Shown: piece by piece, positions 25,995-57,900 of the stretch | Layout: each line of letters starts with the position of its first letter | How positions within the stretch are numbered: the stretch's first letter is position 1 | IMG/VR virus record: IMGVR_UViG_3300005461_000343 | Source: an uncultured virus (IMG/VR IMGVR_UViG_3300005461_000343) | Taxonomy: Duplodnaviria; Heunggongvirae; Uroviricota; Caudoviricetes | Length of the DNA stretch: 64,000 nucleotides | Reading direction: 5' to 3' (one strand) | The notes under the pieces: generated by a model | Seen by the model: the letters and a program-made list of their open reading frames with translations, nothing else | Database searches by the model: none | Told to the model about the DNA's origin: nothing | Made by a program: the position numbers and the translations under genes

Positions 25995-26047
25995 CTGACA
26001 AAACCAAGTGCTTTTATTCGATTTATTTGCGATTAAAAAGATCAATC

Positions 26048-28009
26048 ATGAAACGACTTATTCCTAAATCACGGTTTTCCCGACGCCCCACGACGGTTGA
26101 TAGCGTCAAGCACCGCATCAAGATATCAGGCACGGACAAGACCAACATACCTTTACTGTCTAGGTGCCAAAACGCTTGGGAAAACCTTAGCGATTTCAGG
26201 GCCACCCGTCTTCGTAATTTCCGTTACGTGTTCGGTGACCAATGGGGTGATATCGTGGTGGACAAGGACGGGGAAAGGGTGAAGGAACGCGATAGGATAG
26301 CGAGGCGTACGGGAGGGGTCGCTTTGCAGAACAATCATCTTTTCAAGATCGTAAATACTTTGGCGGGGTTATACGCAAAGACCGCTACCCTTCCCGTATG
26401 TTTCGCCCGGCAGAAAGACGCGGATACCAAGTCACAGATGATGACGGACGCTTTACAGACCAACTGGGAAAATAACCTTATGAAAGATGTCCTCACCTCT
26501 GAGATGATAGAGTTTATTTGCGGTGGATGCGCCGTGGTAACGGAAGAATGGTCTAGCCATGACGATATAGAGGACAGCTACACCTACGTGGTCAACCCTT
26601 CCTATTTCTTCTATGAGTCGAAAGCCAATGATCCAAGGCACTGGGATGATTCCTTGATCGGGGAGATCCGTGACTATACATTAGGCGAGCTGGCCTCGGT
26701 ATTAGCGGAGTCCGAGTATGATTACAGGCAATTGGAGGAGATTTACTCATCTTGGCTCAATCGTATGGAAAATCTGGGAACCCAGCAGACGGATCGTTTC
26801 ATGGACGAGTCTTTTGACACGCCTCCCGCCGCCGACCTGTGCCGGACCTACCATGTTTGGACACTGGAGAACAAGCCTAGATACCGTTGCGTGGATATCA
26901 TGGACACCGATGATCCTATATACAGGATAGAGCTTAGCGATCTTCCTGTTATCAAGAGAGAGAACGAGGATCGTATGCGTATGGGAATATCTCAGGGATT
27001 ACCACCGGAGGAGATTCCATTGATAGAATACACCTATATAATAGATCAATATTGGCATTTCCAAATGCTATCACCGGACGGACGTGTACTTACCGAGTAT
27101 GACACGCCTTATGAATATAAGTCTCACCCCTATATTTACAAGCTACACTATTTGGTGAATGGACGGACAGTTCCTTTTATTTCCGTTATCATAGATCAGC
27201 AACGATACATCAACCGGCTGATCATGCTTAACGACTTGGCTATCCAATCAGCGGTAAAGGGAGTAAAGATGATCCCTAAAGACTCCGTTCCGGACGGGAT
27301 GTCCAATCGTGAGTTCGCCGAGCAATTCGTTGAGATCGGATCATTTATTTTTTACGAGCCGTCCAAGAGCGGGAACAAACCGGAAGTCATAACATCGAAC
27401 TCTACCAATATCGGTACCACGGAGCTATTGCAATTACAATTGAGTTTCATAAACGATATAACGTCCGTGTCGGAAGCCTTGCAAGGGAAAACCCCGTCGG
27501 GATCAACAGCGGCAAGCAGATATGCCATGGAAACACAGAACTCCACTACATCTATCGCTACGTTACTAACCAAGTTCTCCACGTTCGAGGCCGAGATCGC
27601 TCGCAAGAAGATGAAAACGATCCATCAATATTATCAATCCCCAAGGAATATATCGATGGAGAGATCCGCGGGTTATGCCACTTATAATGAGTATGACCCG
27701 AAGACAGTCCAAGATATAGATTTCAAGGTCAACATCAAGGAATCCGCTGAATCTCCGGTAGCGAGAATGATGTTAAACGACTTGGTGAAGGAATTATGGA
27801 TGGCCGGAGCCATTTCCGCGGAGCAAATGTTATCACTATCATATTACCCCGGATCAGACCAGATACTTCAGTCCATTCAATCCAACAAACAAGCCGTTGA
27901 GCAAGGTGGAAATATCCAAGGTATCCCATCGGATCAAATGAACGCGATCAACGGACAGGTTGATCAAGACGCGCTCAATAAGACACGACAAGCCTTGATG
28001 TCAGCATAG
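26048..28009 (+). CDS. Portal protein (P22 gp1-like)
   Basis: About 650 aa with RYVFGDQW, N.L.KIV..LAG, IIDQQRYINRL and ITSVSEALQG...STAASR; Q-rich tail. Start placed at ATG 26048. Confidence 0.8.
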   Translation: MKRLIPKSRFSRRPTTVDSVKHRIKISGTDKTNIPLLSRCQNAWENLSDFRATRLRNFRYVFGDQWGDIVVDKDGERVKERDRIARRTGGVALQNNHLFKIVNTLAGLYAKTATLPVCFARQKDADTKSQMMTDALQTNWENNLMKDVLTSEMIEFICGGCAVVTEEWSSHDDIEDSYTYVVNPSYFFYESKANDPRHWDDSLIGEIRDYTLGELASVLAESEYDYRQLEEIYSSWLNRMENLGTQQTDRFMDESFDTPPAADLCRTYHVWTLENKPRYRCVDIMDTDDPIYRIELSDLPVIKRENEDRMRMGISQGLPPEEIPLIEYTYIIDQYWHFQMLSPDGRVLTEYDTPYEYKSHPYIYKLHYLVNGRTVPFISVIIDQQRYINRLIMLNDLAIQSAVKGVKMIPKDSVPDGMSNREFAEQFVEIGSFIFYEPSKSGNKPEVITSNSTNIGTTELLQLQLSFINDITSVSEALQGKTPSGSTAASRYAMETQNSTTSIATLLTKFSTFEAEIARKKMKTIHQYYQSPRNISMERSAGYATYNEYDPKTVQDIDFKVNIKESAESPVARMMLNDLVKELWMAGAISAEQMLSLSYYPGSDQILQSIQSNKQAVEQGGNIQGIPSDQMNAINGQVDQDALNKTRQALMSA

Positions 28010-28179: not shown

Positions 28180-28671
28180 CTAATCATCCATGGCACACAT
28201 ATAAATCCAGACCTTGCCTTCAGGAGCATCATCGTCAAGGAAATAGAAATTTATAGCGTCCTCGATGATCCTCTTATCCGCATCCGGACCGAACCATTCC
28301 GTGAATTTAATCTCCTTGTCATGCCAGTTCGCGTTAAGAGCAACGTACACGTCCCATATGTTGGTATTTCCCGGTATGCTCATGCCTTTTATAGCGGTAG
28401 CCACCTGCTCCATATTCCAGTGCTCGCCTTTATGCTCTCCCGCCTTGCCTTTATGACGCATTGCCGCCACGTCCATCCTAGCAAAGCACTCATTATAATG
28501 AGGCCCGCAAAAAACCTCATGTATATCACGTATGGCCTCGTCATACTTCTCGGGATCTTTTTCCTTTAGACACTCCATCGCCTCGTCCAGTTCTCCTATG
28601 GCCTCCCACATCTTTTTTTCGGATACCATCCCTTTTGAGTGGTAATCCTTCATCAGTTCTTTGTAACGCAT
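28180..28671 (-). CDS. Conserved gut-phage hypothetical protein (GPHY/GEHW motifs)
   Basis: GPHYNECFA...GEHWNMEQ...WDVYVALN...WHD...FLDDDAPEGKVWIY. Confidence 0.7.
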   Translation of the reverse strand: MRYKELMKDYHSKGMVSEKKMWEAIGELDEAMECLKEKDPEKYDEAIRDIHEVFCGPHYNECFARMDVAAMRHKGKAGEHKGEHWNMEQVATAIKGMSIPGNTNIWDVYVALNANWHDKEIKFTEWFGPDADKRIIEDAINFYFLDDDAPEGKVWIYMCAMDD

Positions 28672-28697
28672 GATCTTGCTTTTTAAACATTAATGAA

Positions 28698-29114
28698 TCA
28701 AGCGCCGGGAGCCGCTGGAAAGGTAGCGGAAATAGTCAATGGGGTAGCCAAACTTACACCGTAGGCACGGTTACAACACTTGACCTTCTCGGGCGTGACT
28801 TGGGTGACGAGAGGGGTAAGAGATATCGTGGGAACAGCGCCAGCGGCCCCGATAAAAGCTACCTTGAATTGCTCGACCCATTGCTTGGTAACTGTCCTGC
28901 AGGATCCCTTGGGCGTATAAGCCACAAGTACGGCGGCATTGATCGTAACCGTCGTTTGCGTATTCACCGTACTCTGCTCGGCGACGGTGAAATTGACTAT
29001 GCCGGTAGGCTGTACGCCATTGTCTGCGCAATAGGCCTGACACAAATTCTCCACTACATTAGTCAAGTATTGTTGGCTGGTAGCGGCGATCGCAATTGGT
29101 GTTAATTGAATCAT
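28698..29114 (-). CDS. Beta-rich hypothetical protein
   Basis: T/V/A-rich protein with LCQAYC and CC motifs. Confidence 0.65.
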   Translation of the reverse strand: MIQLTPIAIAATSQQYLTNVVENLCQAYCADNGVQPTGIVNFTVAEQSTVNTQTTVTINAAVLVAYTPKGSCRTVTKQWVEQFKVAFIGAAGAVPTISLTPLVTQVTPEKVKCCNRAYGVSLATPLTISATFPAAPGA

Positions 29115-29136
29115 GATCGTAATTATTATTGATTAT

Positions 29137-29607
29137 TTATTTATCCACATCATCACCTTGTGGAATAGGTTCCTCTGTCAATACCTCGTATGAGCCGGTC
29201 TTTTCCGGGACCGGAAGATTGTAACGCAACAACGTCCTTAGTTCCTCCAAGTCATCGGTCTCGAACTCGACCTTTCCCTCAAACAGGGAAAGCCCGCCGT
29301 TTCTTATAGCGTCCTCCACCACCTTGTGCGCCAACTCCGGGATAGCCTCATCGGGGATGCCTTGAAGGTACCGAGCCAACATCGGCTCAACTAATGAGGA
29401 TGACAATCCGTCTAGCAATGGGGATATCTCCTTGGATATGCTCCACATGGGACTTACCCAACCCGTGGAGCGTAACTTAGCGTCTATGTTCGCTATAAAA
29501 GGAAGTTGTCCCAACCGGGTTCCCAAGAGACCTTGGATAGCGGGCTGTGCCCACTTATTGAGCACAGCCGCCAGTTTTTGAGCGTTAGAGTACATGGCCA
29601 TCATCAA
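29137..29607 (-). CDS. Hypothetical protein
   Basis: Operonic; overlaps the upstream stop. Confidence 0.65.
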   Translation of the reverse strand: MMMAMYSNAQKLAAVLNKWAQPAIQGLLGTRLGQLPFIANIDAKLRSTGWVSPMWSISKEISPLLDGLSSSLVEPMLARYLQGIPDEAIPELAHKVVEDAIRNGGLSLFEGKVEFETDDLEELRTLLRYNLPVPEKTGSYEVLTEEPIPQGDDVDK

Positions 29608-30104
29608 TTACATCCGCAACATCCCGTATCGCAAACCTTACGCTGCGGGATCACCAACTCGCTCAATGCCGCTAGATCCGCGATCTGCTGTTGCATGCAC
29701 TTCAATGTAGCGGTGTTAGTCCCATTGTAAACGGCTTGGTTCATGTTAATTGAGGCTTGTTCCTCCTTGTTCCTGTTGATGATTGTCAACAAGCGGTCAT
29801 AAACATCCGCCAACTTTTGATCAGTGTAAGTGTTGGCTTTCAACAAGGCGATCTCCGAGTCCTTAGCGGAAATCTTATCCATCATCCCTGCCTCATAGCG
29901 GGAAATAGGCCTGTCTTCGGATGTGATTACCTCGACCGGACCGCCATATCCAGCGTTCCTTACGTTGCCACAACCACCCAAAAGATTCCCGGCGTTCAAT
30001 CCCAAGAAAGAAGCGATACCTGCAGAAGCTCCCACGGTGTTGTAATTACCTTGGCCTTGCCCGGTGACACTGTACTCCTCACCATTCATTCCTTTAATTC
30101 TCAT
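29604..30104 (-). CDS. Gly-rich hydrophobic, coiled-coil protein with CCGCN tail
   Basis: TVGASAGIASFLGL hydrophobic segment, KDSEIALLKANTYTDQKL coiled coil, C-terminal VCDTGCCGCN. Confidence 0.7.
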   Translation of the reverse strand: MRIKGMNGEEYSVTGQGQGNYNTVGASAGIASFLGLNAGNLLGGCGNVRNAGYGGPVEVITSEDRPISRYEAGMMDKISAKDSEIALLKANTYTDQKLADVYDRLLTIINRNKEEQASINMNQAVYNGTNTATLKCMQQQIADLAALSELVIPQRKVCDTGCCGCN

Positions 30105-41054: not shown

Positions 41055-42656
41055 TTACACGTTAATCTCTCCCTTGTATGGTTTCCATGCGGTACCGTCA
41101 TATACATACAATCCGACGGCGTGCGTATCGTCCGCTACGGTCAAATAAACCACATCGTCCTTTTTCGGTGTAGATACGGAACTCAGGGAAGCCACGCTGG
41201 AAACGACTGTGTCAAGCATAGACAGCTTATATCCGCTCACTGTCACGTCCGGACCGATCAGCATCGAGTTATAACCCGTAAGCATCAAGCAGTCATCCTG
41301 AATATAATATTGGGATTTGGCCTCCCGTACCTCACCGCCTTCTCCCTTGGAATGATCCACGGTAAGAGTCTTTCCTTTCTGGTAGTAATAACGCTTGGCC
41401 TCGGACATCGGGAAAGCGACGGCGCATTCCTCATATCCAAGATCGTCAAGGGCGTGCTCGACCTTGAAGTTCAACTTTCCGAAAGTGGTCTCGAAAGAGG
41501 AGATATCAATACCGATATTCTGTTTCTTGACGAATGAGATATCCTTATGTTTCGTAAAGTCGATGTTCAGCAACTTCTCGATGAACTTGGTACCGCAATA
41601 CACGTCCATCTCGTTCGTGTTCGAGTACTTTCCGAAAAGCATACGAGTGATACCGATAAGATCGGCGAACTCCAATGTCGAACCGATCTGGTAACCCAGC
41701 CGTAATTGTCTCAACACGCCTTTCTGGGCATACACGTATTCGGTACCTGTTTTCTTGGAGCCATACTTCACGAACTTCGTACCTACGCCGATCAACATCG
41801 TGCGTGTACATTTCTTGCGGAAATTAGACAAAGTCCAATCCTTCAAGTCTTGTACGTTCCACTTAGCCTTCTTATTGATACGCTCGAAGAATTCCGTCCA
41901 CGTGATTGGACATACCTTCTTCTGCAAGTAGGCGATCTCTTTCTTGGGATAAGCGGAATCCGGGGCGATCTCCACCTCACTCTCACTCATGGCCGGTGCC
42001 ATGATGTGCAATCCGGTACCCGCTTTCAAATCCGGCACATACATGTTTTTTCCTTCATCCAACGGGCCATTAAGAGCGGAAACCATAATACCGTTAGCCT
42101 TATCCGCGGATATGACATAGAGGACTAACGGACTACCGTCAGAATTTCCGTTCTCATCATATCCGGTTACGCCGTCTACCAAGACAGTGTTGCACTCGGC
42201 AAATAACTTCTCGTCATTCTTATACAAGCTTAGTTTTACCTCAGCGTCCTTTTCCGTGTTGGTCACCGCCGCCTTGGTAACGCAATCCATTATAGCCTCG
42301 CCAATATTGTAATGCTCCGGTTCCTTCGTGTTGACATGGACTTGCTTGGCGAGCTTGAGGAAATCCGTGTGCATGGGATATTTGTACGCTTGAAATTTAC
42401 TGACGTAATCCTCTACCTTGTTCTCGGCCAGATCAGCGTCGGTGACCGCAGATCCGGTAGCCCCCTGCCCCTGCTGGTCAATACCCTTACCGGCGGCGTC
42501 CGGGGTCGCATTCTCCAACGGCTTGTCATTATTGGGATCCGTATCACTTCCATTCTCCCCGATCTCCACGGCCATAGCCGCTCCACCAGTCAATACCGCC
42601 AAGACAAAGAACAAAGCCTTGACCCAAAACATCTTGTCTTTAAATAATTTATTCAT
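41055..42656 (-). CDS. Putative major capsid protein with an N-terminal hydrophobic (TM or signal-like) segment
   Basis: 533 aa downstream of a scaffold-like gene; HK97-like pattern (YLQK, RTMLIG, KGVL, G.DISSFETTFGKL); N-terminus FWVKALFFVLAVLTGGAAMA. Confidence 0.7.
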   Translation of the reverse strand: MNKLFKDKMFWVKALFFVLAVLTGGAAMAVEIGENGSDTDPNNDKPLENATPDAAGKGIDQQGQGATGSAVTDADLAENKVEDYVSKFQAYKYPMHTDFLKLAKQVHVNTKEPEHYNIGEAIMDCVTKAAVTNTEKDAEVKLSLYKNDEKLFAECNTVLVDGVTGYDENGNSDGSPLVLYVISADKANGIMVSALNGPLDEGKNMYVPDLKAGTGLHIMAPAMSESEVEIAPDSAYPKKEIAYLQKKVCPITWTEFFERINKKAKWNVQDLKDWTLSNFRKKCTRTMLIGVGTKFVKYGSKKTGTEYVYAQKGVLRQLRLGYQIGSTLEFADLIGITRMLFGKYSNTNEMDVYCGTKFIEKLLNIDFTKHKDISFVKKQNIGIDISSFETTFGKLNFKVEHALDDLGYEECAVAFPMSEAKRYYYQKGKTLTVDHSKGEGGEVREAKSQYYIQDDCLMLTGYNSMLIGPDVTVSGYKLSMLDTVVSSVASLSSVSTPKKDDVVYLTVADDTHAVGLYVYDGTAWKPYKGEINV

Positions 42657-42685
42657 CGCAAAAGTATTAATTGTTATTATTCTTA

Positions 42686-43390
42686 TTATAAAAAAGGATT
42701 GTTCACGTCTTGCGTAACCGGCTTCTCCTGCCGTGCTCCTTGTCTTCCTCTCGGCCTTTCCTGCTTACCGCTAAGATCCTTTAACTTGTCGGTAACTTTC
42801 TTGTTGATCCCTTCCGCCACGCCTTCCTCCCGAGCGGCCTCCACGTCTTGGTTATAATTCATTCCCTTGGCCATCATCTCGAAAATAGACGGGTCCAATT
42901 TACCGACGATCAAGTCATCCATGACTTGATACATCTTGCCTATAACCTCCTCCGCTTGATCATCGGAAAGGCCCATCTCCGAGGCTTTCGCCCTAATCGC
43001 TTCCACGCTAGCCGGCATATTCTCCGACATTTGTTTCTCGATCTCGTCCTGTTTCGCCAGTTTCTCCAAGTAAGCGTTATGAGCGTCGGCCAGCTTTTGC
43101 GAATAATCGGGATCATCGGCCAAGGCTTTTAAGTCAAGCCCCTTATTCTGTACCATCCACACCACGGGATCGAAATCATCCTGATCCCTAGCGGCTACCA
43201 TCAACTCGGCGAAAGCTGGACTCTTCGATAGGTTCTCCCGCATTTTCTTAGAGTTTCCCTCATAACCCTCATACTCGTCCATGAACAGGTTGACCGAGCC
43301 GTAGTAAGCCTCCTCGTCATCCATGTTAAGATCCGGATTCCGTTTGGCGTATCTCTGTCTGAATCTCTCTTTGTTAGATATATCTGCCAT
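42686..43390 (-). CDS. Putative capsid scaffolding protein
   Basis: Acidic helical protein of 234 aa with a basic C-terminal tail, directly upstream of the capsid gene. Confidence 0.6.
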   Translation of the reverse strand: MADISNKERFRQRYAKRNPDLNMDDEEAYYGSVNLFMDEYEGYEGNSKKMRENLSKSPAFAELMVAARDQDDFDPVVWMVQNKGLDLKALADDPDYSQKLADAHNAYLEKLAKQDEIEKQMSENMPASVEAIRAKASEMGLSDDQAEEVIGKMYQVMDDLIVGKLDPSIFEMMAKGMNYNQDVEAAREEGVAEGINKKVTDKLKDLSGKQERPRGRQGARQEKPVTQDVNNPFL

Positions 43391-43411
43391 ACCTTAATCG
43401 ATTTTGTTTTA

Positions 43412-43458
43412 GGCAAAGGAAAATAATAAGGTATATCCGTTTTGTTATTTTGATTATT
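43412..43458 (-). promoter_or_regulatory. Putative late promoter, copy 2
   Basis: GGCAAA...AGGTAT-N5-TTTTGTTATTTTGATTATT, matching 25948-25994. Confidence 0.6.
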
Positions 43459-43543
43459 TTATTTAACCCATGAACCCTAAGAATAATCAAACATGTGAAT
43501 CTATTTTTTATCTTTGTGATGTTCACCAAAACAAGCGTTCTTT

Positions 43544-43951
43544 ATGGTTAATGGCGTAGATTTCATCCCAGAGCGGGACATGGAGCTTTACGAAGCTTAT
43601 AGACGTGCTTTGAAGATGAGGGAAGTGAAATCCCACCGAGAGGCGGTAATGAGGGCTATATCCTCCCATGCCTCTAGGTTCTGGATCTCCACCCTTCAAG
43701 CGTATAGGGGGATCCTGCTGATCAGGAAAGGGAAGACCAAGGAAAAGGGTCGATCGATCAGGAACAAGATGATCGATGACATTTATGAGATTTACAAAGA
43801 GCTGGAGAAAAAGAGAGAATTCAAGGGAAGCTCCGTTTATTTCATCACCTCTTTCGCGGTCTATCAAACGGCCCCCTGTTTTTACATATCCTATTCACGG
43901 GCGTTGGCGATAATACAACGCATCAACCGGGAAAGGAAAAATGGAAGGTAA
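43544..43951 (+). CDS. Basic hypothetical protein with an internal duplication; possible late regulator
   Basis: Repeated motif ASRFWIS / APCFYIS; upstream TATCTTTG at 43509-43516. Confidence 0.6.
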   Translation: MVNGVDFIPERDMELYEAYRRALKMREVKSHREAVMRAISSHASRFWISTLQAYRGILLIRKGKTKEKGRSIRNKMIDDIYEIYKELEKKREFKGSSVYFITSFAVYQTAPCFYISYSRALAIIQRINRERKNGR

Positions 43952-44414
43952 GCTAAAAAGACTGATTCCTTCATTAATAATCGCCTTGACAAGCGTCATA
44001 CTCCAACTCGCAGGTAAACATTTCTATTTCGATACCAATTCCATACCATACGACCATTTCCTTTACACGTTCACCCACGCAAACATCTTTCATTTATCAT
44101 TAAATCTTATCGCCTTATTCCAGTTTAAGCCTCGTGTGAAAACATGCCTGATCGGTTACGTGTCTTGCGTCTTGGCCTCGTTCGTACCACTAGCCTCATT
44201 GTCGGTTCCTACATGCGGCATGTCCGGATTTATCATGGGATGTTACGCCCGCAGATATCACGCCTATAAACTAAGCCTTTGGAGAATAATATTGAGCAAT
44301 ATCGTCATGGCGTTTATCCCCTTATTCAACTGGAGGATACACTTGCTGTCATTCCTAATAGCCTATATCATCTATGGAGTCATACAGAAAATTAGCGTTC
44401 ACGGAAGAGGTTGA
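43941..44414 (+). CDS. Rhomboid-family intramembrane serine protease
   Basis: HANIFHLSLN (HxxxxHxxxN), GMSG (GxSG catalytic Ser), His in the last TM (WRIHLLSF), about six hydrophobic segments. Confidence 0.8.
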   Translation: MEGKLKRLIPSLIIALTSVILQLAGKHFYFDTNSIPYDHFLYTFTHANIFHLSLNLIALFQFKPRVKTCLIGYVSCVLASFVPLASLSVPTCGMSGFIMGCYARRYHAYKLSLWRIILSNIVMAFIPLFNWRIHLLSFLIAYIIYGVIQKISVHGRG

Positions 44415-46488
44415 GTCTATATTGGCCGAGAATAACAAGAGGCTGAAAAATATATTCGGCACGCACGACCAATTCACGGGGCGTGGAATGGAGGGGCATA
44501 GCCATAGGGTTGTCATAGATGATTACCCCATAAGGGTGCAGTGGCTTACCGAGGAGGTTTTCAAGAACGATCTGTATCAAGATGTTCTGAAAGCTGGTTC
44601 CATAAAGGACTACACGATAAGGTTCAACGAGCTGTACCCGGATTCAGATGGGATAAATGAGGAGGACGTGGCCAACATGCTATTTTGGGCCCGTTGCTCG
44701 AGAGACCCGTCCTTCGCCTTTTTCTCGTTATTTAAGATCAAGTCGAAAGAGGCGGGAGAAATGATCCCCTTCGAGCTTAATTACGCCCAACGTTACGTGC
44801 TATCCGTTCTGGAAGAAATGAGGCATAAGGGAGTCCCGATCCGTATAATATTATTGAAAGCCCGGCAATGGGGAGGTTCCACCTTGGTACAGCTCTATAT
44901 GGCGTGGATACAGCTATTCGTCATGGAAGGATGGTATTCCGTAATTATAGCCCAGACGAAAGATACCGCCAAACGTATCAAGGCCATGTATAAAAAGGTT
45001 CTCGATAATATCCCGGGATTTATATATGGTGTTGACAAGTTACAATTCGCCCCTTACGAGCATTCGGCGTCCGACTCCATAATCACCGACCCGTCCGGGA
45101 ACAAGGTACGTGATAACGTGATAACCGTGGCATCTTATGAGAATTTCGAGTCAACACGTGGTATGGACTATGCCATGGCCCACTTCTCGGAGGTAGCCTA
45201 CTGGAAAACAACGGATGGCAAATCGGCGGAGCAGGTTATAACAAACATAGACTCGAATATATTGGAGAGACCGTTGACCATGGAGATCTCCGAGTCTACG
45301 GCTAACGGCATGGCCGGTTATTTCTATGATGAGTACCAAATGGCCAAGGAGGGCACGTCATCCCGTAAGGCGCTATTCATACCGTTCTTCTTTATCGAGA
45401 ACGACATGATAAGATTCAAGGACAAGAAAGAGACCCGGCTTTTCATATTGGATCTATTAGAGGGAAGGGATGTCACGACCTCCCCTAATGACAATAGCGA
45501 ACCGGGACAGTATCTATGGTCTCTATGGGAAAAAGGAGCTACGCTGGAGCACATCAAATGGTATATCAAGAAAAGGGCCTCGTTCCATGATCACGCATCG
45601 ATGGCATCCGAGGCACCATCCGATGATGTCGAGTGTTTCAAGTATTCCGGTAATCTCGTGTTCAATATCTATACGATCGAGGTGATGCGGGAAAGATACG
45701 TATCACCCCCGGAGTTCATTGGCGACATATCCCAATCAGAGAAGACCAAGAGGATAATTCTCTCCAAGAATCCGAACGGCCTGTTGAGAATCTGGAAGAG
45801 GCCCGATGATACAAGGACATCCAACGAGTATCTTGTTATCGTCGATGTCGGTGGACGTAGCAAGAACTCTGACCCGTCATGCATAACGGTTATAAACAGG
45901 TGGAATTTACGATTCAGCGGAGGAAAGCCGGAGGTGGTAGCCAGATGGCACGGTCATATACGATACGATTGGCTCGCCTACAAAGCCGTCAAGATCGCCA
46001 GATACTATAAGAACGCCCTTCTCGCCTTCGAGAGCAATACGTTTGATAAGAAAAAATCAGAGGCGTCAGAGTTCGTGGAGGAAGGCGATCATATTCGTGG
46101 CATACTGAAAAAGATAGAGGATATCTACCCTAATCTTTACATGCGAGCGGCGACGGATCCCGAGGACATAAGGAACGGCATATACAAGAAGATAGGCTTC
46201 CAGACCAACAAGAAGACCAAGCAGGACATGGTGGATAATTTCATAGTGGCGTTCGAGGACGATATGTTTATAGACCCGGATGAGCGTATGTACAAGGAAG
46301 CGTCAAAATACGAGCAACGTCCGGACGGTAGTTACGGTAATATTCCCGGTCGTGGCAATCACGACGATATATTGATGACAGACATGATAGGAGCGCTCAT
46401 ATCAGAGGATATGCCTAAGCCTTCTATAATCAAAGAAGAATCAACGGGATATCTTGATTCATATCCCAAAAATGAGTCGAGTTTATAG
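44374..46488 (+). CDS. Terminase large subunit
   Basis: PFELNYAQ, LKARQWGGST (Walker A), HFSEVAYW, ESTANG, IVDVGG and HDD motifs. Confidence 0.92.
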   Translation: MESYRKLAFTEEVESILAENNKRLKNIFGTHDQFTGRGMEGHSHRVVIDDYPIRVQWLTEEVFKNDLYQDVLKAGSIKDYTIRFNELYPDSDGINEEDVANMLFWARCSRDPSFAFFSLFKIKSKEAGEMIPFELNYAQRYVLSVLEEMRHKGVPIRIILLKARQWGGSTLVQLYMAWIQLFVMEGWYSVIIAQTKDTAKRIKAMYKKVLDNIPGFIYGVDKLQFAPYEHSASDSIITDPSGNKVRDNVITVASYENFESTRGMDYAMAHFSEVAYWKTTDGKSAEQVITNIDSNILERPLTMEISESTANGMAGYFYDEYQMAKEGTSSRKALFIPFFFIENDMIRFKDKKETRLFILDLLEGRDVTTSPNDNSEPGQYLWSLWEKGATLEHIKWYIKKRASFHDHASMASEAPSDDVECFKYSGNLVFNIYTIEVMRERYVSPPEFIGDISQSEKTKRIILSKNPNGLLRIWKRPDDTRTSNEYLVIVDVGGRSKNSDPSCITVINRWNLRFSGGKPEVVARWHGHIRYDWLAYKAVKIARYYKNALLAFESNTFDKKKSEASEFVEEGDHIRGILKKIEDIYPNLYMRAATDPEDIRNGIYKKIGFQTNKKTKQDMVDNFIVAFEDDMFIDPDERMYKEASKYEQRPDGSYGNIPGRGNHDDILMTDMIGALISEDMPKPSIIKEESTGYLDSYPKNESSL

Positions 46489-46573: not shown

Positions 46574-47280
46574 TATATTTGCGTAGTCACTGATTAGAAT
46601 ATAAGACGTGACACACATTGTGGCGTTAAAGATATCGTCTCCTATAAAGACCTAAATTCCCCAAATTTATAAACATAACAGGGAGCCGATAGCAACAATA
46701 CGCCCACGTTATTTGTATATATAATCTATATATAAGACGTGGGCCGTTGCTTACTACCTGTTATGTTGGCGTGGGGACGCCGGGTCTTGGTAGTTGCGAC
46801 GGCGCCACGTTTTTTTATGCGTATATGGTATGTTATATATTTATAACCCCTTATGGCTCTCATCCGTGATGGACCGGAGTCATTACTTAAAGATATTACA
46901 CTAGGTTGTATTCATAAAATATTTTATCAATGTCATACCGCTCTTTCGTGAGAACCAGAGGTATATTTATGTCAAGGGGATAGCTTTGGAGGATGGGGGC
47001 ACACTCCCTTCCTTATGGCATAAAATATAGTTTGAATAAATATTTCCCGCTTCCCTTGGGTAGTATTGGGAAGCATTTTAAGACGGATATACCCACCGTT
47101 GCTATTCCGGGAGGATCGGCAATGATGATTAAGTATGTCTTTGTTTAGATATGGATTTAGATATTACAAACGCTCTCGTTCGTGAGGATAGGACCGTTTA
47201 AGGTTGTCTGAAAACCATTCATATAGATTATAGTTAAATAATAAAAACTCCCTTATCCGTGAGGATTTGGGGAGTTTTTT
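46574..47280 (+). ncRNA. Putative long structured non-coding transcript / small-RNA array
   Basis: TATATTTG at 46574-46581, no credible ORF, a long hairpin (46672-46767), a terminator-like hairpin (46769-46816), five GNRA-type hairpins, and a final hairpin with a T tract at 47243-47280. Confidence 0.6.
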
Positions 47281-47389
47281 ATTTTTTACTATTCCTCGGG
47301 ATAAAACTAAAAGTAAAATATGCCGTAAAACATGCCTCCTACGGAATAACGGATGTGAAGATTGGGTAATTTTGCAAAAAACACAAAAC

Positions 47390-48382
47390 ATGTCTATAAA
47401 TACATACTATACTATTCTTGGAATTACTGAATGTGCTACTTTTGAAGAAATACAAAAAGCATACAGGCAAAAGGCATTATTATATCATCCTGATAAAAAC
47501 AAAAGCGACAATGCACATGATATATTTATAAAAATACAAAAGGCATATGAAGTATTATCTGACCCAGAACGAAGATCAAAGTATGATAATGACTTAAATT
47601 CCTATAGGCAAAATATTTTCAATTCAATAAACACAGACAAAACAAATAGAGGTAAGTCTGATATAGAGAATATACAAAAACAAAAAAAGAGTCCAATCAA
47701 TAAACGATCATATAAAAGGGAAAAGACAAGCATTAATTCTAAAAATATATTAATATTTATTTGCATATCAATAATAACTATATATATAGCTTACCATGCT
47801 AATTTATTCAATATTAATAACCATAATACAGACACAATAAATCCTACACAAAAGATTGATGATTATGTTGAAGAGGTTGCGCCTATAGTTGAAGAAGTTG
47901 AAGATTCAAATATATATAAGAATAATCATCTTATGAATGGAGATTCTCCATTTACTGAATACTTTGGAATTAATTCGTATGATGATAGCCAAGATAATTA
48001 TATAACGGTAAATAATGGAAGTGATCAAGACGCTGTTGTTATATTAAAAAATATAACTAGTAAAAAGATAATTAGGAATGTATATATTAACAAACACACA
48101 TCTTATGATATAAGAAATATTCCAGAAGGTATTTATGAGATGAAATGTGTTTATGGTAATGACTGGAATCCTAATTTATTATTCAATGGAATGAAGTTAG
48201 GAATGTTTCAATCAAATGTACATTACTCTTCACAAGCCAACTATAAAGACTATTTTAATATGTTTTCAGAGAGAACAGAAAATGGAATTTCTATTCCATA
48301 CTATGAAGTAACTCTTCATAAAGTGTCTAATGGCAACATGAGAACAAAAAAAATTAACCAATCTGACTTTTTTGAAAAATAA
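47390..48382 (+). CDS. J-domain (DnaJ-like) single-TM protein, AT-rich moron
   Basis: YYTILG...AYRQKALLYHPDKN...F.KIQKAYEVLSDPERRSKYD, TM ILIFICISIITIYIAY, own promoter TAATTTTG at 47367-47374. Start moved to ATG 47390. Confidence 0.85.
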   Translation: MSINTYYTILGITECATFEEIQKAYRQKALLYHPDKNKSDNAHDIFIKIQKAYEVLSDPERRSKYDNDLNSYRQNIFNSINTDKTNRGKSDIENIQKQKKSPINKRSYKREKTSINSKNILIFICISIITIYIAYHANLFNINNHNTDTINPTQKIDDYVEEVAPIVEEVEDSNIYKNNHLMNGDSPFTEYFGINSYDDSQDNYITVNNGSDQDAVVILKNITSKKIIRNVYINKHTSYDIRNIPEGIYEMKCVYGNDWNPNLLFNGMKLGMFQSNVHYSSQANYKDYFNMFSERTENGISIPYYEVTLHKVSNGNMRTKKINQSDFFEK

Positions 48383-48384
48383 AT

Positions 48385-48861
48385 ATGGAAGATTTTTTAA
48401 ACAGCATGACTATCCTTTCATCGGCGATATTAGTCTATATATTCAATCGAGATATTATTTTAAAAAAGATATTATGGAAAGAAAAATTCGAGCCTAGGAA
48501 ACCTAATGGAAAAGGGAAAAACATCTATTTGTATGACGCAAGGATTTTAGGAGTAATTCTTGAAGGGATTAGATTCAGAGAATCAACAACAGCATACGGC
48601 ATATCAGAAGTAAGATACCGTTTTCTAATGTTCCTTGGTATTTTCTTAATTCCTATTGGATGTTATCGTGTTATAGAGAAAAAAACCATAAAAACCGGAT
48701 ATAAAGAATATACGACACAGTTTATGATACTAGGTACAGAATCATGGAATTTACTTGAAATTATATCCATATATATTTTTAGGTTAAGCACTTTGATAAT
48801 ATTCATATTCTCTATTATATCGATAGTAGCATTTATTGGCTTGATCAGTGAATATATTTAA
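48385..48861 (+). CDS. Membrane protein co-transcribed with the J-domain gene
   Basis: Three hydrophobic segments, FLGIFLIPIGCYRV; starts 2 nt after the upstream stop. Confidence 0.7.
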   Translation: MEDFLNSMTILSSAILVYIFNRDIILKKILWKEKFEPRKPNGKGKNIYLYDARILGVILEGIRFRESTTAYGISEVRYRFLMFLGIFLIPIGCYRVIEKKTIKTGYKEYTTQFMILGTESWNLLEIISIYIFRLSTLIIFIFSIISIVAFIGLISEYI

Positions 48862-48907: not shown

Positions 48908-51900
48908 CTATTCACCATTAGCTATCTCATTCATCATAGCTTTCAAATCGTATAACTCCATTTCCAATCTTTCATCATCTACCTTCTTCAAATACTCACC
49001 CATTGATTGATACAATTTGTTAAGATTATTAAACTCTACATATCCACGATATTCATCGCTCATCATAAGATCATTCAATTTTTTCTGATACTCTGCTATA
49101 TCAAAACTATCGTTCTGTGGATTAGACAATTCTTTACGATATCCTCTCAATCTTTGTCCGATCTTATCCATTTCTTCCAAATTCTCATAATAAGCGTTAT
49201 CTATGGCTTTCTTTTTCGTCCGCTCATCACCACTTTTTATAAGACGGTTCCCTACAGGGATATTCCTCCAGTCAAAATCACGACTACCCCAAGCGGTTTC
49301 AGCGGATTTGACCATCTGGGAACGCGTAGCCTCAATACCTCCGAAATAGCCGTCCAATATATGTTCTATAATGGCAGGGTTTAGGTTAACGGTACCTGTA
49401 GTGTATTTATCTCCTCCGGTTAGTTCATTGGCATATTTAGTCATTGCCAATATAGCGGGATCCACGCTCTTAAAAGCCTTTGTCCATTCCGGCATACCCT
49501 TGTTGAAGTCGTTATCCTTATATAAAGGCAAACCTGTCCAATCCTTGTTATCTCCGGCCTCAATCAATGGCTTTACCGAGCTTGGGACGAAAGCGGAGAA
49601 TCCTCCACCTCCCTCCATCATGTCCAAAGGAAGAACCTGTGACATTTGCTCCGCTATCTTCATGGCCATCTTTTTATCGGTATACTTCTCCTTTCCGGAA
49701 ACTATTCCAGAAGACATTTCTCCTAGTCCATATATAGCCCTTAACTCTATGGGCATAGGAATTGTAATCCAATTTCCTCCACCGTTACGGAAACAGATAT
49801 TATTACGTCTCACGTATTCCGGAAGATCGTAGTAATCATCATCTTCATCATCCCCAAAAGCGGCAGCGATCATAGGCATGATAGTGCCAAGTAAATAGAA
49901 AGAGGACGCTAACCCCAAGAATTTCTTGGGATTATCCTTGGCCAGCCTTCCGAAATTATACATACCTTGTACACCAGCGTTCCAAAACACATACATGGAT
50001 CTTGACAATCCAGACGTGAAAGCGCTAGCGTTACCTATCTTGGTTTGCCCCTCAGTATTCAATAATTTCGAACCCGCCCCTTTCTTATTGAAGTTTACGG
50101 ATATCTCCTTAGCGTCATAAATGGATTTATCCATGCTTCGCCCCATTTCTCTAGAAGTAAGGAACGCAGCGAACCTAGCGCAATTCTCCACGCTCTTATT
50201 GAACAAGTCCATCCATTCGCCTAGTATTTTCAAAGCCTTTCCTATAGATACCTTTTGCTTGGAGTATTGAAGTTCTTTTTGGATCGCCTTCTTCTTGGCT
50301 TCCACGTCTCTCAAATTGGTGTATCCGGTCTCTCCTCCTCTCATTACAAAATCATGGTATGCCTTATTCAAGGGATCGATCATATCCAACGTACCGTTCT
50401 CATACCCCTTGACCAGACGATACATATTGATCGGGTTTACCTTAGCGAAATTCTTATTGAACTTCCAAGCGTAAACAGGACTTTCCTTGACCCATACGGT
50501 AGTATTCGAATAAAGCGCGTCACGAAGGAAATTACTTACCATGAAATTAGGGTTACGTGTCGTGAAGTTAGCCGCCAAGTTACGGTTCAGCCATCCGGCG
50601 TATCTCTCCACGGTACCGAACCATCCTTTCGTATTATCCGGGTTTGTAAGCCCGTTCAACGCTTGAGCGGCCCTTGGATTTCCGTTTATGGTAAGCACGT
50701 ATTCTTTGCCGGCTCTCTTTACGATCACTTGATGCTCCTTCAAGTCCTTTGGCAATATCTTGTAAGGTATCCCTATAGCATCCCTTGAACGCCTGACATT
50801 AGATCCTTTTTCATTGGATAGCTCCTCCATGCGTTTGTTGAAAGATTCCACGATAGACTCCACCTGTTCCGGATTGGCGTTAGATGGTATATCCGGGAAA
50901 ACGGCAATCCACTCACCGGAAGCCTCGTCAAGACGAACCCACATTTCGCTTACGCTCACGAGATCCGTCTTATGATTTTGTACCATTGTCAAAAACTTTT
51001 GCTTCATCAAGTTCCTATTCCCTTGCATGATTCCACTCTCTGCCATATTAGCGATCGTCGCTATAGGATCGTCAGCCTTGCTCTTTCGCCCAACGACAGT
51101 CTTTATAGGGGCGTTGAACGTCTGGCTTTCGGATGTAAGATAAGCGTAAACCTCATCTGCCGTAGTTTCCTCCCATCCACGCAAAGGCACATAGAACTGA
51201 TACATATCGCTGATCGACTCAAACGTATTTTGGCTCATAAGCCCGCTATCCCGTTGCTTTGCCAATATAGCGTCAGTGGCTCTTTTGACAGAGGCCGATA
51301 ATTCCGATGTATCATATCTTGACTCGTAATCCAATACGTATCTCCTTGCGGAATCCAGATCATACCCCGTGTTATTCTCGTTAGGATACATGGACGTGAA
51401 TCCGCTGAAATCATCAGAAAGATTAGCTCCGTATTCCTCGGCAAGCCTATCCATTTCTGATTGCTGCTCTTCCCAAGACCTACCGTTCTCACGTATCTCA
51501 TTCCTTCTCCCGATATACTCGTCAAGCAGGGATTTATATGTTTCCGAGTTTTGTGACAACGCTCGTTTAACGGCCATTTCCCTGTTACGCTCAATACCAT
51601 GCTTGGTTATAAGGTAATCCCTTATCTCATCAATGGTGGATCCCATCTTTTCCAATCGTGACATCGCTTTTAAGATAGGCTCGAAAGCCGCTTTTCTATA
51701 AGCGTTGAACTCCGCTTCATTAACAGAGGAAAGGGCATTCTCGGCCATATAAGCGTTCTCATAATCCAATAGACGACTCCTCGTTGCCTTTGCCACGGCA
51801 TCCTGCAATGTTTTAAGCCCTAGCATAGAATCCTGAAACGCCTCCTGAAATTGATAGGACGATGTAGATAGGGTACGCTCATATTGATCTTTGGCGGAAC

Positions 51901-54900
51901 CTACCTGTTTCTCTACTACTTGGATATCATTATCAGCGAACAATACCGACTCATTCCGCGCGTTCTCCCTAAAACGGATTGTTTTCTCTGCGAAAGCGAA
52001 ATCATCCGTCTTTTCCCTTACGCTTTCTCCAACGCCTCTACCCTTGTTTTCAGATTCTGCACGTCCGATGACAGTCCGATCACCGCCGATTCCATCCCGG
52101 ACACTTCCGCTCCTATCGCCTGTATCTCCTCCGTCAAGTTGGTCTCCATCGTTGTCAACTTTTCCATCAATCTCCCTTCCATTTCGGTCAATTGCGTTTT
52201 CAGTTCCGTCAATAGCGTTTTCAACTCCCCTTGGTTTGTCGATATGGTCTCGTTCACTTTCGTTTCCGTTCTCATCAACGCCATCGATTGTCTCGAGTTC
52301 CCTTCCAGTACCTTTTGTTTCAGAAGGTTGTTTTCCTTTTTCAGGTTCAATATCTCTTGCGATTGATCCATTTTCGTTCAAATTTATATTGTTAAGACTT
52401 AATCTATTTCTCATCACGATATCCTCGGCTACATCCATCAAGTTTCCTTGCTCCAAGTTCTTATAGCTTCTCCAGAGAATATAACGGAGGTCATTATCCG
52501 ATAACTTGAAATCAAGACTAATACCTGCCTTTCTCAACATATCAAGAAAAGCGTCCTTGATCTTTTCCCATAACGAACGCTCGGCCTTGTTATCGAAACC
52601 ACGTTCCGCTAATTCAGCGAGGTATTCCTCTGTAGCCTCACGCAAGTTAAGAGGATTGCCTTTAGTCCGGTCAATGATATTTTTCCGGATATCCTCGTTG
52701 GCGTTCCGATACACGTTATCAAGGAAAGTATCGAAATCGTCCCCGAATAGCTCACGTAACCCGTGATGCCCTACCACCTCATGAAGGAAAGTCCTTTGAG
52801 CGTCACCTACGGACGTGGAATTAGGTGATACTATGACTATCTCCCCGGTAGAAGTATCATACCAGCCTTTGGAATCTCTCTTACGGGCCAACATATTCTC
52901 ATCCGTATCGGTTATATCGTCCACGTCATGGATTACCCTGACAGGGATATTAAACTTGTTTGACCAATCGTTGATTGAGGATTCAATAGAACTTACATTA
53001 TCCTGATTATTAGTTGTATCTACTCCCATGAATCGAAATCGAGTCTCTCCTTCCTCTTTTACCAACGTACCATCAACGTCAAGAGTTGATTCTAACTGAA
53101 TATCCTCAGCTTTAGCTTTTTCAACTAATTGTCTCTGCAGATCATTAACCTCTGCCTGAGCCGCATTAAGTTCATCCTCTTTTCCCCACGGTTTCTTAAC
53201 GGCTTCCTCTAATCCCGCTATCTTGTTTTCCTCTGCCTTTATTTTAGTGGCTATATCTGAGACGGATTTAGCGGGAATCCCCAACTGCCTGTCAATGCTA
53301 GCCATCAAACCCCTGCCGCCGCTAAAATCACGATTCTCAACCAGTTTTTCCTTTCCTAAATATAAACTATAGACCATCATTCCTTCATTGAAATGCACGA
53401 TTGCCTCGCCTTTTCCTCCATTGAGACTGATTTTCAGAGGAGGGGTGTTTCTGTCAAGCGTATATCTATCATAGTAATCATCAATAATGGGCGTAAGCTC
53501 ATTCGATATACCATCGCTGAAAGTATTGCCTTTAACAGTCACGGACTCAACCCCATCAGGGAAGTTCTCTTTTACGATATTGGCGTTCCTTTCCATGATA
53601 TCCTTCCGGCTGTTGTATTCTTGTATCCTAAGTTTGGAGTTAGATATAGAGCCACGCATGGAAGACTTACTGTTAAGATCGCTCCTCTTGGAGTTTTGCA
53701 ATTTCTTTAACTTGTTCTGTGCCACAAACAGCAGTTGGGCGGTCTTATCTCCTGATAACGTCGCCGCCATCTCACTAAATGTCATTCCAGACGGATCACT
53801 ATCGTCTTGCTCCTCCATTACACGAGACGATATATCGCCTTTCATCATTTGGTTGATGAAGTTTTGTTTTATACGAAGCCTGTCATAGGCGGTAGCGTCA
53901 AGGGTACCTTTAACGCCATATGTGACGATGTTCACCGGTTTATCCCATGTGGCGTATAAGTTTCCTTGTCGTAAGATACGACCGTTGCGTTGCTCAAAAT
54001 CCATAGGCCTGATTGGAGCGTCAATATGATGCAGGGCGAATAGACGATCTTGCACGTTGACACCCACTCCCATTTTCTCCGTGCTTCCAATAAGAATGCG
54101 CACATCCCCATTACGGACCTTATCGAACAAGGCGTTTCTCCTTTCTCCCTCATAATTGCCAACGATAGCTATCTGATTAGATGGAATACCTCCCTTGATA
54201 AGCTTTTCCTTTATATCATTGTACAAATTAAACTGAGGAACAGATAAATCGACATCGAATAAATCCATTTTTGGAGTCTCAGAAGGGGATTGATAACTAT
54301 CGCAGAATATAAGTTGCGTGCCCTTGTCCTTATCGCTCTCCTTATATAATCTCAACACGTTATCGACCACCTTGTTTGTCTTGCTATCAGGATTGTCGGG
54401 AAATGTAGGATTAAGCAAGCGAAGGTCAATCGCAGCCTGTTTAGCCTTGCTGAACACGACCAAGGGTAGTGCGCTCTTATCCTTCTTCTCTTTTCCTGTC
54501 AATTTGTTATAATCCTCTAATTCCTTGATAAGGGTTTGCATGATATCCTCCAAGTCCTCGTTCTTCTCGACAACGACATTGGTCATCTTATTGTCTTTCA
54601 ACTTAGGGATATTCTTGTCTTCCTTGAACTCCTTGACATCCTCAGTCAAGACAACGTCCGTATGGCTCCTGAACGCCTTTATAAGCTCCGGGACATTCGT
54701 ATAGCTCTTGAACCTCTCGGCTATCTTAAAGTTACCGGTAGCGGTAAACTCCAATGACGGCTCAACCGTTCCAAAAGTGGTAGCGAACTCGTCAAAGCTA
54801 TTGATATTATATGCGTCTAGGATATCGGGTGCCACGAAATTCATCATAGTCCAGACCTCTGCCATTGTATTAGTGATAGGGGTACCGGTTGCCAGAACCA

Positions 54901-57900
54901 CGTTTCGACCACCATTATTCTCAGATATCCATTGGGCTTTTAGCAACATACTATTAGCTCTTTGTGACGCGCTCGTATCGATACCTTTAACGTTCGACAT
55001 CTTGCTTGGAAACCCGATCTTCTTATAATTATGCGCCTCGTCAATAAACAAAGCGTCAACACCCATTTGCTCAAACGTCATGACATTATCAGTCCGCCTG
55101 TCAAGAATACGCTCCGTCTTGGCCGTGATAGTCTCCGCAGTCTTTGCCTTGCCCTTTACGTTTTTCCCTTTCTTTATACCTTCCAGAGAATCACGCATAC
55201 TTTTGGCCTCCCTTTTCAATCTCTCCTGTAAAGCCTTGTCTTCTATGCGATCGATAGCTTCCTCAAAATCATCTATACGCTTTTGGATATATGCCTTTTT
55301 CCTTTCCTCGCTATCCGGGATAAATGCCATAAATGACTGTGGGACAACGATAGCGTCAAAATCTCCGGTAGCTATAAGATTGAACAGCCTTGTCCTATTA
55401 TCGGCATTACGCTCCTCCTTTGTCGGAGATAGAATCTTAGCGGAAGGATACAGTTTATAAAAGTCACGGACGAAATCCTCTAGGGTAGCGTTTTGGACAA
55501 CGATCATGGGTTTCTTCGCTATACCTAGCCGTCTCATTTCCATAGCGGACGTAATCATGGTAAAGGTCTTTCCCGTACCGACTTGGTGAGCGAGTAACGT
55601 GCTCTCGGATAGACAACGTTGCACCGCCTTGCTCTGGTGATCCCTAAGCGTTATATTCTTATTAGCGTTAGGATAATGCTCAAAAACCGGTTTGTCATAC
55701 TTTTTTAGTACATAGTTGTTGTATTTATCATTATACACGTCCTCAATACGACCATGGAACATCGTTTTAGAATCAATATACTCCACGAACTTATCGGACA
55801 TGTCGGATATTTTCTCGGCAACGGCCTGTGTCTCCTGCTCGTTTACGACCCTTCTCGTTTTCTGCTTACCGTCCTCATAATATTTAATCTCGTCATAAAC
55901 CTTGGGTTTACGTTGGTTAAGAGCGGCCTTGAACACGTCTATAGCGTCCATTCTCTCAGTCTTGAATTGACCGGCTTTAGCGTAATCGGTTATGAACGCC
56001 CTCTTATCAAGAATATACTCACCGATCTCTGGGATAAAATTAGCGTTAGCGTAAGATATACCCAGTACATTATCAGCGAAATTATTTATAAACTCAGACG
56101 GGATCCATGTAGTCCCCAGTCGATAACTTATCTCACCATAGGGTATACGTTCTGGCTGTACGGCTTCCAAGTCATCCACGTTTTTTTGAAACTCCGGATG
56201 ATCTTCCAAGGCCGCCTTAGCCTCTACCAACTTATCTTTTACGTTTCCAGAGAGATATTCGCTCTTATCTATTATATTGCCGGTAACAGGATCCCTATAA
56301 GCAATTCCCTTCTCTAGTATCTCGTTTGTCACGTTCACCTCATCCATACCCGTTATCTCCGAGATATAAGGTATATCAATATTACCTTTATATGACTTGC
56401 TTATATTGACGGCATCCAAGACATTATCCGCTTTTGTCGGTAGCTCGAATGGATAACTTACACGCTTATTCAAGATACCATCCGCTTTCGAGACTTCCCA
56501 TACCATAGATTTTCCGGTCGTGGAAGGTACCCTTCTAACGGTTTCCAAAGAGAAGGGTAATCCATGCTCAACATCCTCGGCGAAAATATCGTCCAAAGCC
56601 TTGTTCCTGTTAAGTGTCCCATATTTGGACACGAAAGCATCATATACTTTGTTTAGCCTTTTCCTCGCGGGCTCGGGGTCCACACCCTTTGTTTGCTCAT
56701 CATGGATAAGATCGTATAGATTTTTCTTTATATCATTGTAATCATTTACCGCATCCGCTATTTTCCGGGTCTTACCATTATGAACGAACGTAGGATTTGC
56801 CTTAATCGGTTTTAACGACTCTCCATCTAAAACAAAGACATTGCCATTCTGGACGGTAATAGTACCATCTTTCAAAGTGGAGTCACCCACAACCTCCGGC
56901 CCTTTAGTCTCTACAACACCTGATAGGATATTCTTTGGTAAGTTATCAATAGCGTTAAATAGCTCCTTGCTTAAATCGGCCCCGGGTTTGGCTTTCAATG
57001 TCTGGGACGCTCCACTATATAGACCTCCGCTACCAGCGTCATAAGCAGTCATCATATCACCTAACATCATATCGGGATGATTGGAGAAATACTCGTTAAC
57101 CATGATAGGCTTGCTCCTTTTATCCCCGTCCTCCATATAAGTTCCTTCACCTATTTGCGTTGTAGTAGCGAACCCTATCCCATTCGAAGGTTCCCCATAC
57201 TTTCTTTTACGGAATATAACGATGTCGGCCGTGACACTCGTGCCGGCCCCTTTCTGGAAAGCGTCATTAGGCAATCGAATAGCTCCGACCAGATCATAAC
57301 CGTTTCCACTCACGTACTCACGGAACTTACTATCGGCCCCATCCATCGTAGCCGAGGACGTGACGAATACGCCGAGACCACCTTCTTTCAATTCCAGAAG
57401 CCCCTTTAGGATAAAATAATTATGGAGATTATAAGAGGAACCAAGTTTCTTCCTGAATTGCTTATCTAAAACCTTATCATATGGAGCGTTTTTCCCGAAT
57501 GGGACGTTGGTGATAACTAAGTCTTTCGAGTTTGGAGAAAACGCTTTCTCATATCCCTGCACCTTTATATTAGCGTCAGGATATAAGGCCTTTGCCATAC
57601 GACCGGACAAACTATCTATCTCGAACCCACTTATACTTGAGTTTTCAGATATAGACCTAGGCATCATACCGATTATGTTACCTATACCCATGGCGGGTTC
57701 ACTGATATTGCCGCCCTTGAATCCAAGTTTCTCCGTTATTCCCCATAAGCTTTCCACGACCTCGGACGGGGTATAATGAGAGGTTGTCGTGGAACGGACG
57801 GCACTGTCGAACTCTTCTTTACTTAATAAGGATTTTAGTTTCTCGTAATAACGTAGATACTTATCATTCCAATTTCGATCCTTAGTCCAATTGTTGTCAC

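Follow-up and report, generated by a model that had tools for sequence, protein, structure and literature searches.

HK97 gp4 and T4 gp21 are prohead proteases that remove N-terminal propeptides from HK97-fold capsid proteins. The membrane anchor of the T4 prohead is the portal, not the capsid protein, and to our knowledge the capsid proteins of tailed phages are regarded as soluble and cytoplasmic and as matured by soluble proteases. A capsid protein anchored through a signal sequence is known from hepatitis C virus (HCV), whose core protein is freed by signal peptide peptidase, an intramembrane protease. Here we analysed bases 1-64000 (the window) of the 67,786-base record IMGVR_UViG_3300005461_000343 of an uncultured virus, in which a 533-residue capsid protein begins with a hydrophobic leader and a 157-residue rhomboid protease is encoded in the same block of head genes. 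It probably stands for a widespread family of Bacteroidales tailed phages in which the capsid precursor is held in the inner membrane and freed by the phage rhomboid as the maturation enzyme.

As in the prohead-protease systems, a phage protease is paired here with an N-terminal extension of the capsid protein. HK97 gp4 and T4 gp21 differ in being soluble and located inside the shell, and a separate scaffold-like gene exists in the window. HCV is a eukaryotic enveloped RNA virus, and its core protein, unlike the one described here, has a C-terminal anchor and is processed by a host aspartyl protease. The initial annotation of this DNA had recognised no conventional prohead protease in the window, and a comparison of 47 open reading frames (ORFs) with PHROGs agreed: no prohead-protease family was found among them, with about one third of the ORFs matchless and short ORFs only partly scanned.

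The capsid gene occupies positions 41055..42656 on the minus strand. Its product starts MNKLFKDKMFWVKALFFVLAVLTGGAAMA, followed by an acidic linker of low model confidence; this succession of a basic stretch, a hydrophobic stretch, GGAA and an acidic linker had been noted in the initial annotation. The Pfam model PF17236 (SU10_MCP) matched the protein with an E-value of 6e-4 (19.8 bits, under the gathering cut-off of 24.1) and is carried by some of its homologues. The AlphaFold model (71 sequences) reached a predicted local distance difference test (pLDDT) score of 80, with a helix at residues 8-22 and low confidence at 24-29, 44-47 and 63-79. In Foldseek it gave 310 matches in the PDB at E <= 0.001 with phage capsids on top, including the phage VP1 capsid 9in6 (E 7e-19) and the crAss001 capsid 7qof (E 9e-13), as well as the SU10 and HK97 capsids. 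Judging from this model, the protein is the precursor of an HK97-fold major capsid protein (SU10_MCP/DUF5309-like), and the identity and fold proposed in the initial annotation are borne out.

The leader comprises capsid residues 1-29 (42570..42656, minus strand): a basic n-region, the hydrophobic helix 8-22 and a GGAAMA c-region, with a predicted cut at or near A29. Among the long late-gene ORFs the capsid ORF is unique in having an N-terminal hydrophobic segment; the portal, scaffold-like and terminase ORFs were checked and have none, and no strongly hydrophobic segment occurs in the capsid protein beyond the leader. A 15-residue hydrophobicity cut of 2.0 was passed by the leader in 92 of 120 close homologues, and a cut of 1.6 by 103 of the 124 full-length 50%-identity representatives among 150 of 582 matches. 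On the tree of representatives, leaders are spread throughout and leaderless forms are nested. The N side carries a net positive charge in 95 of 97 leaders, and the next 35 residues a net negative one, again in 95 of 97. Leaderless capsid proteins begin at about the predicted mature position of the leader-bearing ones.

Other capsid N-termini deserve mention. A second leaderless clade (P0027-P0036, 7 proteins), near the window protein and about 60% identical to it, has a polar N-terminus and holds up as real on the protein evidence; its DNA context was looked for and not found. P0121 and P0103 were rejected as leaderless and attributed to short start calls, their clusters including 546- and 544-residue members. 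Environmental relatives (L455:9103-10527; P0231, P0244, P0250, P0259, P0266) carry a longer leader made of two segments, which might fold into a hairpin. We also rejected a dual start at the internal Met of AMA: of 79 internal Met codons 18% have A at -3, against 62% for 98 true starts, and the upstream A+T content was 0.38 vs 0.81. An in-plane amphipathic helix in place of a membrane segment was discarded on the low hydrophobic moment of residues 14-26 (0.07-0.14).

The leader fits the Sec/signal peptidase I layout (basic n, hydrophobic h, small-X-Ala c-region), which brings in the main rival to the rhomboid as the cutting enzyme. Host signal peptidase I would cut at Ala-Met-Ala, and the phage rhomboid would clear the freed leader peptides or mis-inserted precursor, acting as a signal peptide peptidase or in quality control. 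A small residue is present at -3 in about 74% of leaders, with Ala at -1, and Ala-X-Ala-like leader ends persist in apparently domesticated chromosomal copies that have no rhomboid; both enzymes act on the periplasmic side, and this explanation accounts for the co-occurrence of leader and rhomboid equally well. Nevertheless, we consider it unlikely. The leaders are Gly-rich, with Met enriched at -2, and long (median 29 vs 19 residues in 28 host-like proteins, whose signal peptides were called by a crude regular expression). By the same crude measure, the Bacteroidetes Q-rule site with Q at +1 (taken from part of PMC5837995) occurs in 4 of 97 leaders vs 11 of 28 host-like signal peptides. Additionally, normal export would place the capsid protein in the periplasm. 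Rhomboids, for their part, are described as preferring a small P1 and a bulky P4 residue (PMC11389362, in part). Met-Ala/Ser is present in 58 of the 97 leaders, and with Ala as P1, 66% show Val, Leu or Phe at P4, the true site being only predicted.

The rhomboid gene (43941..44414, plus strand) encodes a compact six-helix protein. The intact motifs described in the initial annotation (HxxxxHxxxN, GxSG and the TM6 His) are present as H46-x4-H51-x3-N55, G93-M-S95-G96 and H134, with the catalytic codons of S95 and H134 at 44223-44225 and 44340-44342. H46, H51, N55, G93, S95 and H134 were the only invariant columns in 32/32 relatives, at a mean identity of 29%. The Pfam Rhomboid model (PF01694) matched with an E-value of 2.4e-4 (21.8 bits, cut-off 22.6). 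The structure model had a pLDDT of 94, and the first 22 Foldseek rows were all GlpG (best E 2.6e-3 against the tool's line of 0.001, probability 1.00), with TM-scores of 0.53-0.68 against GlpG chains. The model and the conserved residues indicate that the protein is an intact, conserved GlpG-fold rhomboid (S54), predicted to be active. The rhombosortase model TIGR03902 did not match the window rhomboid. It was the nearest NCBIfam model for two of three relatives (E 1e-7 and 2e-7, 31-32 bits vs a cut-off of 84).

Across the 32 rhomboid sequences, the N-terminus, loops 2 and 4 and the C-terminus are basic, and loops 1, 3 and 5 are not. This pattern predicts a periplasm-facing active site (compared with the GlpG/AarA topology given in part of PMC3712462) and led us to reject an inverted rhomboid.

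We analysed the co-occurrence of the two traits in 304 phage loci (341 minus 37 without a full capsid gene or terminase large subunit, TerL), a redundant and query-driven set. Leader and rhomboid were both present in 178 loci, both absent in 71, and found singly in 54 (leader) and 1 (rhomboid), so that the association proposed for checking in the initial annotation holds. At 70% capsid identity there were 45 clusters: 31 with both, 10 with neither, 3 with the leader only and 1 with the rhomboid only. The 54 leader-only loci all fall in one subclade. For 17 of these the search was extended to the entire record, and in 16 a rhomboid lay just outside the flank, including all 15 records that were at least 90% complete. 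Among leaderless records, it was found in 1 of 24 searched (L150) and in 0 of 16 near-complete ones; in leaderless relatives the TerS-like gene directly abuts TerL.

The association was also approached from the rhomboid side. A motif scan returned 117 new loci, and all 53 with a full capsid gene bear the leader; the rest had no capsid gene in the locus (60), a partial one (2) or no rhomboid (2). For 23 of these records, a capsid match was sought and found in 19, with a leader in 18 of 18 N-termini, which brings the rhomboid-first total to 71 of 71. Since the motif was drawn from this phage family, the scan is no sample of all phage rhomboids. Gene order, rhomboid and leader are all shared by the cultured phages BF1-TP2, BS-TP4 and BKO1-TP3; a tblastn search of cultured phages with the window capsid protein gave no match (too distant), and these relatives were reached via TerL. 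On these sequence comparisons, the pairing of leader and rhomboid is real, family-wide and functionally coupled.

The initial annotation had placed the rhomboid across a divergent promoter from the capsid gene, overlapping TerL. The 41-nt overlap of the rhomboid ORF with TerL and the divergent gap are present; capsid and rhomboid genes, however, are not neighbours, as the scaffold-like (minus strand) and TerS-like (plus strand) genes stand between them. This spacing served as a linkage control. Leaderless and leader-bearing (BS-TP4-type) capsid proteins form one clade each and are about 30% identical, whereas the scaffold, TerS-like and TerL genes of both types interleave on trees (all built with FastTree). 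For example, the scaffold, TerS-like protein and TerL of leaderless L132 share 66, 63 and 77% identity with those of leader phages, and the L177 TerS-like protein is 64% identical to theirs. On a 37-row TerL tree each trait changes 12 times, and of 8 independent pairs that differ in the leader, 7.9 differ likewise in the rhomboid (p about 0.008). The rhomboid thus follows the capsid type although two genes intervene, a pattern better explained by selection for the pair than by passive linkage. Comparison of L132-L211 with L212-L291 showed both capsid types exchanged on closely related scaffold/terminase backgrounds. This suggests repeated swaps of the capsid gene, possibly driven by defence.

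From the charge bias, the leader is predicted to lie N-in/C-out in the inner membrane. Its conserved Gly-rich end would then be on the periplasmic side, as is the predicted active site of the rhomboid. The initial annotation had envisaged capsid subunits that assemble tethered to the inner membrane and are then released by the rhomboid. With the capsid body in the cytoplasm and a cut after GGAAMA, either the active site would have to face the cytoplasm or the leader would have to be N-out. The charges predict the opposite for both, which is at odds with a simple scheme of tethering and release in the cytoplasm. A form of this proposal in which the leader is N-out, tethered proheads assemble in the cytoplasm and the rhomboid cuts within the helix to release them, appears improbable to us. 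The chain direction would be canonical for rhomboids, the hydrophobicity of the leader is marginal, and T4 proheads do assemble membrane-bound; set against this are the N-in bias of 95 of 97 leaders and the fact that, after a cut near the outer face, most of the helix would stay attached to the capsid protein. Moreover, HK97 N-arms point to the shell interior, so a closed shell tethered by all its subunits would have to enclose membrane. Shell assembly at the periplasmic face, with a budded membrane patch inside the shell, would be the sole arrangement that reconciles leader topology, active-site side and inward N-arms without a loop. We found no precedent for it, and swaps of capsid type on near-identical scaffold/terminase backgrounds are hard to square with different compartments; we regard it as very improbable.

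The reading that we favour has the rhomboid reach the leader by a loop. Like a signal anchor, the leader would insert into the inner membrane with its basic end in the cytoplasm. Its Gly-rich c-region, together with the flexible acidic linker (roughly residues 24-80), would form a loop that reaches the periplasm-facing active site, and the folded capsid body would remain cytoplasmic. Once the chain had been cut at or near GGAAMA, the linker would slip back. The leaderless capsid protein would then assemble with cytoplasmic scaffold and portal, as in leaderless relatives, for which ordinary cytoplasmic assembly is suggested by a start near the predicted mature position and by closely related scaffolds and terminases. 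The likely purpose would be to park the capsid protein at the membrane and time its release with the terminase operon. Some action of the rhomboid on the leader is very probable, and it is likely that the rhomboid makes the capsid maturation cut; towards its being a dedicated enzyme that cuts the leader by the loop route we lean only slightly.

Several observations weigh against this reading. The weak step is the direction of the chain, which is reversed relative to TatA and VesB: these bacterial substrates are cut N-terminal to the membrane helix (PMC3712462 and PMC11389362, each in part), whereas here the predicted cut motif follows the helix and the leader is N-in by charge, so the canonical order of a rhomboid substrate is predicted to be absent. 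The c-region is also a good Ala-X-Ala site for signal peptidase I, the window leader's own P4 residue is Ala and not bulky, and the cleavage, localisation and virion form of the capsid protein are themselves predictions. Only 3 pairs each come from the TerS and scaffold trees (p 0.25), and 6 from a 59-row TerL tree, 5.3 of them alike (p 0.06); the pairs are re-assortments of one leaderless capsid clade, not separate origins. In L150 the rhomboid is intact although the capsid gene is leaderless, and in L455, a 13.9-kb environmental contig with the longer leader, no rhomboid was found. Finally, among 16 genomes with an apparently domesticated, leader-bearing capsid gene and a TerS-like locus, a rhomboid was present at the TerS slot in 3 and absent there in 13. 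One of these 13 is a single 3.4-Mb contig, and the copies are related, not independent.

L150 and the domesticated leader-only copies would also be explained if the rhomboid targeted another protein, such as a host receptor or a different phage membrane protein, and merely shared a history with the leader, itself then an uncleaved anchor or a substrate of host GlpG. Stenotrophomonas phage DLP3 is reported to encode a rhomboid (gp93) that has no linkage to capsid genes (PMC7326821, in part). Still, the phage rhomboid tracks the capsid type across swaps without adjacency, and the leader is found on 71/71 rhomboid-first capsid N-termini; we therefore see only a slim chance for this alternative.

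The apparently domesticated copies came from a search of 401 Bacteroidales genomes, in which the capsid profile matched in 28. Many chromosomal capsid matches are scattered, several lying by fumarate hydratase, with TerL elsewhere. The leaders of these copies are more hydrophobic and poorer in small residues (median 4, against 7 for 34 phage leaders), as if they were drifting to stable anchors, and they keep Ala-X-Ala-like ends in copies without a rhomboid. In L300-L317, L329-L340 and L464-L480 (G065, G138, G307, G362, G107 and others) the frames of the scattered head-gene set are open. The scaffold-capsid-adaptor block adjoins class I fumarate hydratase in G138, G307 and G362, and the TerL and TerS-like units are at other chromosomal sites. 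The set is possibly an element resembling a gene-transfer agent. Two domesticated copies, L330:14935-15927 and L331:1143-2159, are in-frame fusions of the rhomboid with a lipoprotein-like (spanin-like) protein; sister genomes retain the lipoprotein part alone. Leaderless domesticated capsid genes (L316, L320, L321, L323, L296) mostly lack a full scaffold-like gene, and five leaderless domesticated sets have no phage-type rhomboid; L296 was derived separately, from the capsid clade to which the window itself belongs.

The remaining genes of the window place this pair in its context. The order of the head block is capsid (-), scaffold-like (-), TerS-like (+), rhomboid (+) and TerL (+). The scaffold-like protein (234 residues; 42686..43390, minus strand) is so called from its position and its acidic, helical make-up; its gene is kept beside the capsid gene in relatives, and it matches phrog_22323 (function unknown). 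An AT-rich intergenic gap of 153 nt (43391..43543), with putative divergent promoters, precedes the TerS-like gene (135 residues; 43544..43951, plus strand), whose presumed identity comes from its position; the product matches phrog_27246 (function unknown). Atlas searches returned no named family for either protein. TerL (704 residues; 44374..46488, plus strand) was identified by phrog_5989, phrog_24361 and tblastn matches to annotated TerL. It is followed by an inserted DnaJ-domain membrane protein and a small membrane protein (47267-48861); BF1-TP2 also carries an annotated DnaJ gene. The portal, which has no leader, lies at 26027..28009 on the plus strand (phrog_156, E 9e-49). Behind it, four small minus-strand ORFs at 28180-30104 have no PHROG match, with similar-looking genes in L294 and L427. 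A polyvalent DarB-like protein of 4754 residues with methylase and helicase regions spans 48908-63172. No tape-measure gene was recognised in the window, which suggests a short-tailed phage. Host-type gyrA and clpC-like genes stand at the window start, a repressor-like gene is present besides portal and terminase, and the remainder of the record holds an integrase. The phage is a temperate one of a gut bacterium, and its nearest named relatives suggest a Parabacteroides host.

Our literature search found no paper that links a phage rhomboid to capsid maturation or describes the pair, although supplements might annotate it. In the available parts of PMC12694917, PMC8008677 ('Quimbyviridae') and bioRxiv 10.64898/2026.06.25.734096 the word rhomboid does not appear, and in that of PMC11965321 it is used in its geometric sense only. 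If the proposal is right, the maturation proteases would gain a new class, and head assembly in common gut phages would include a membrane step; BS-TP4 is reported in 31.3% of 930 viromes (PMC12694917, in part). It would also provide a natural and abundant rhomboid substrate, apparently in reverse orientation, for a minimal 157-residue enzyme. The cultured relatives open the pairing to direct tests, for which leaderless sister phages offer ready controls.

Signal peptides on phage capsid proteins are already known from unrelated Porphyromonas phages. Like the protein described here, the capsid protein of the 'Nixviridae' phages of Porphyromonas gingivalis, also phages of Bacteroidota, has a signal-peptide-like leader (PMC10367356, in part). 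Unlike it, that protein belongs to another family (668 residues, phrog_21862) and is encoded next to an S49 prohead protease. The signal peptides are ascribed there to prohead proteases, and the part of the annotation available in the supplement contains no rhomboid. The gene after the 'Nixviridae' capsid gene also opens with a similar long leader (supplement 3, rows 1105-1106).

Among rhomboids, the phage enzyme shares with GlpG and AarA (PF01694; PMC3712462, in part) the six-helix fold, HxxxxHxxxN, GxSG, the TM6 His and a predicted periplasm-facing active site; it differs in being phage-encoded, in its length of 157 residues and in having no soluble domain. As proposed here, removal of an N-terminal extension would activate an oligomer-forming protein, just as AarA does with TatA, except that TatA is N-out and the capsid leader is predicted to be N-in. 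The closest parallel in distribution is the rhombosortase/GlyGly-CTERM system (TIGR03902; PMC3237569 and PMC11389362, each in part), likewise a compact dedicated rhomboid co-distributed with a Gly-rich motif, a membrane helix and a basic end. Unlike the rhombosortase substrates, the capsid protein carries its signal at the N-terminus, in mirror order, and without a C-terminal GlyGly-CTERM.

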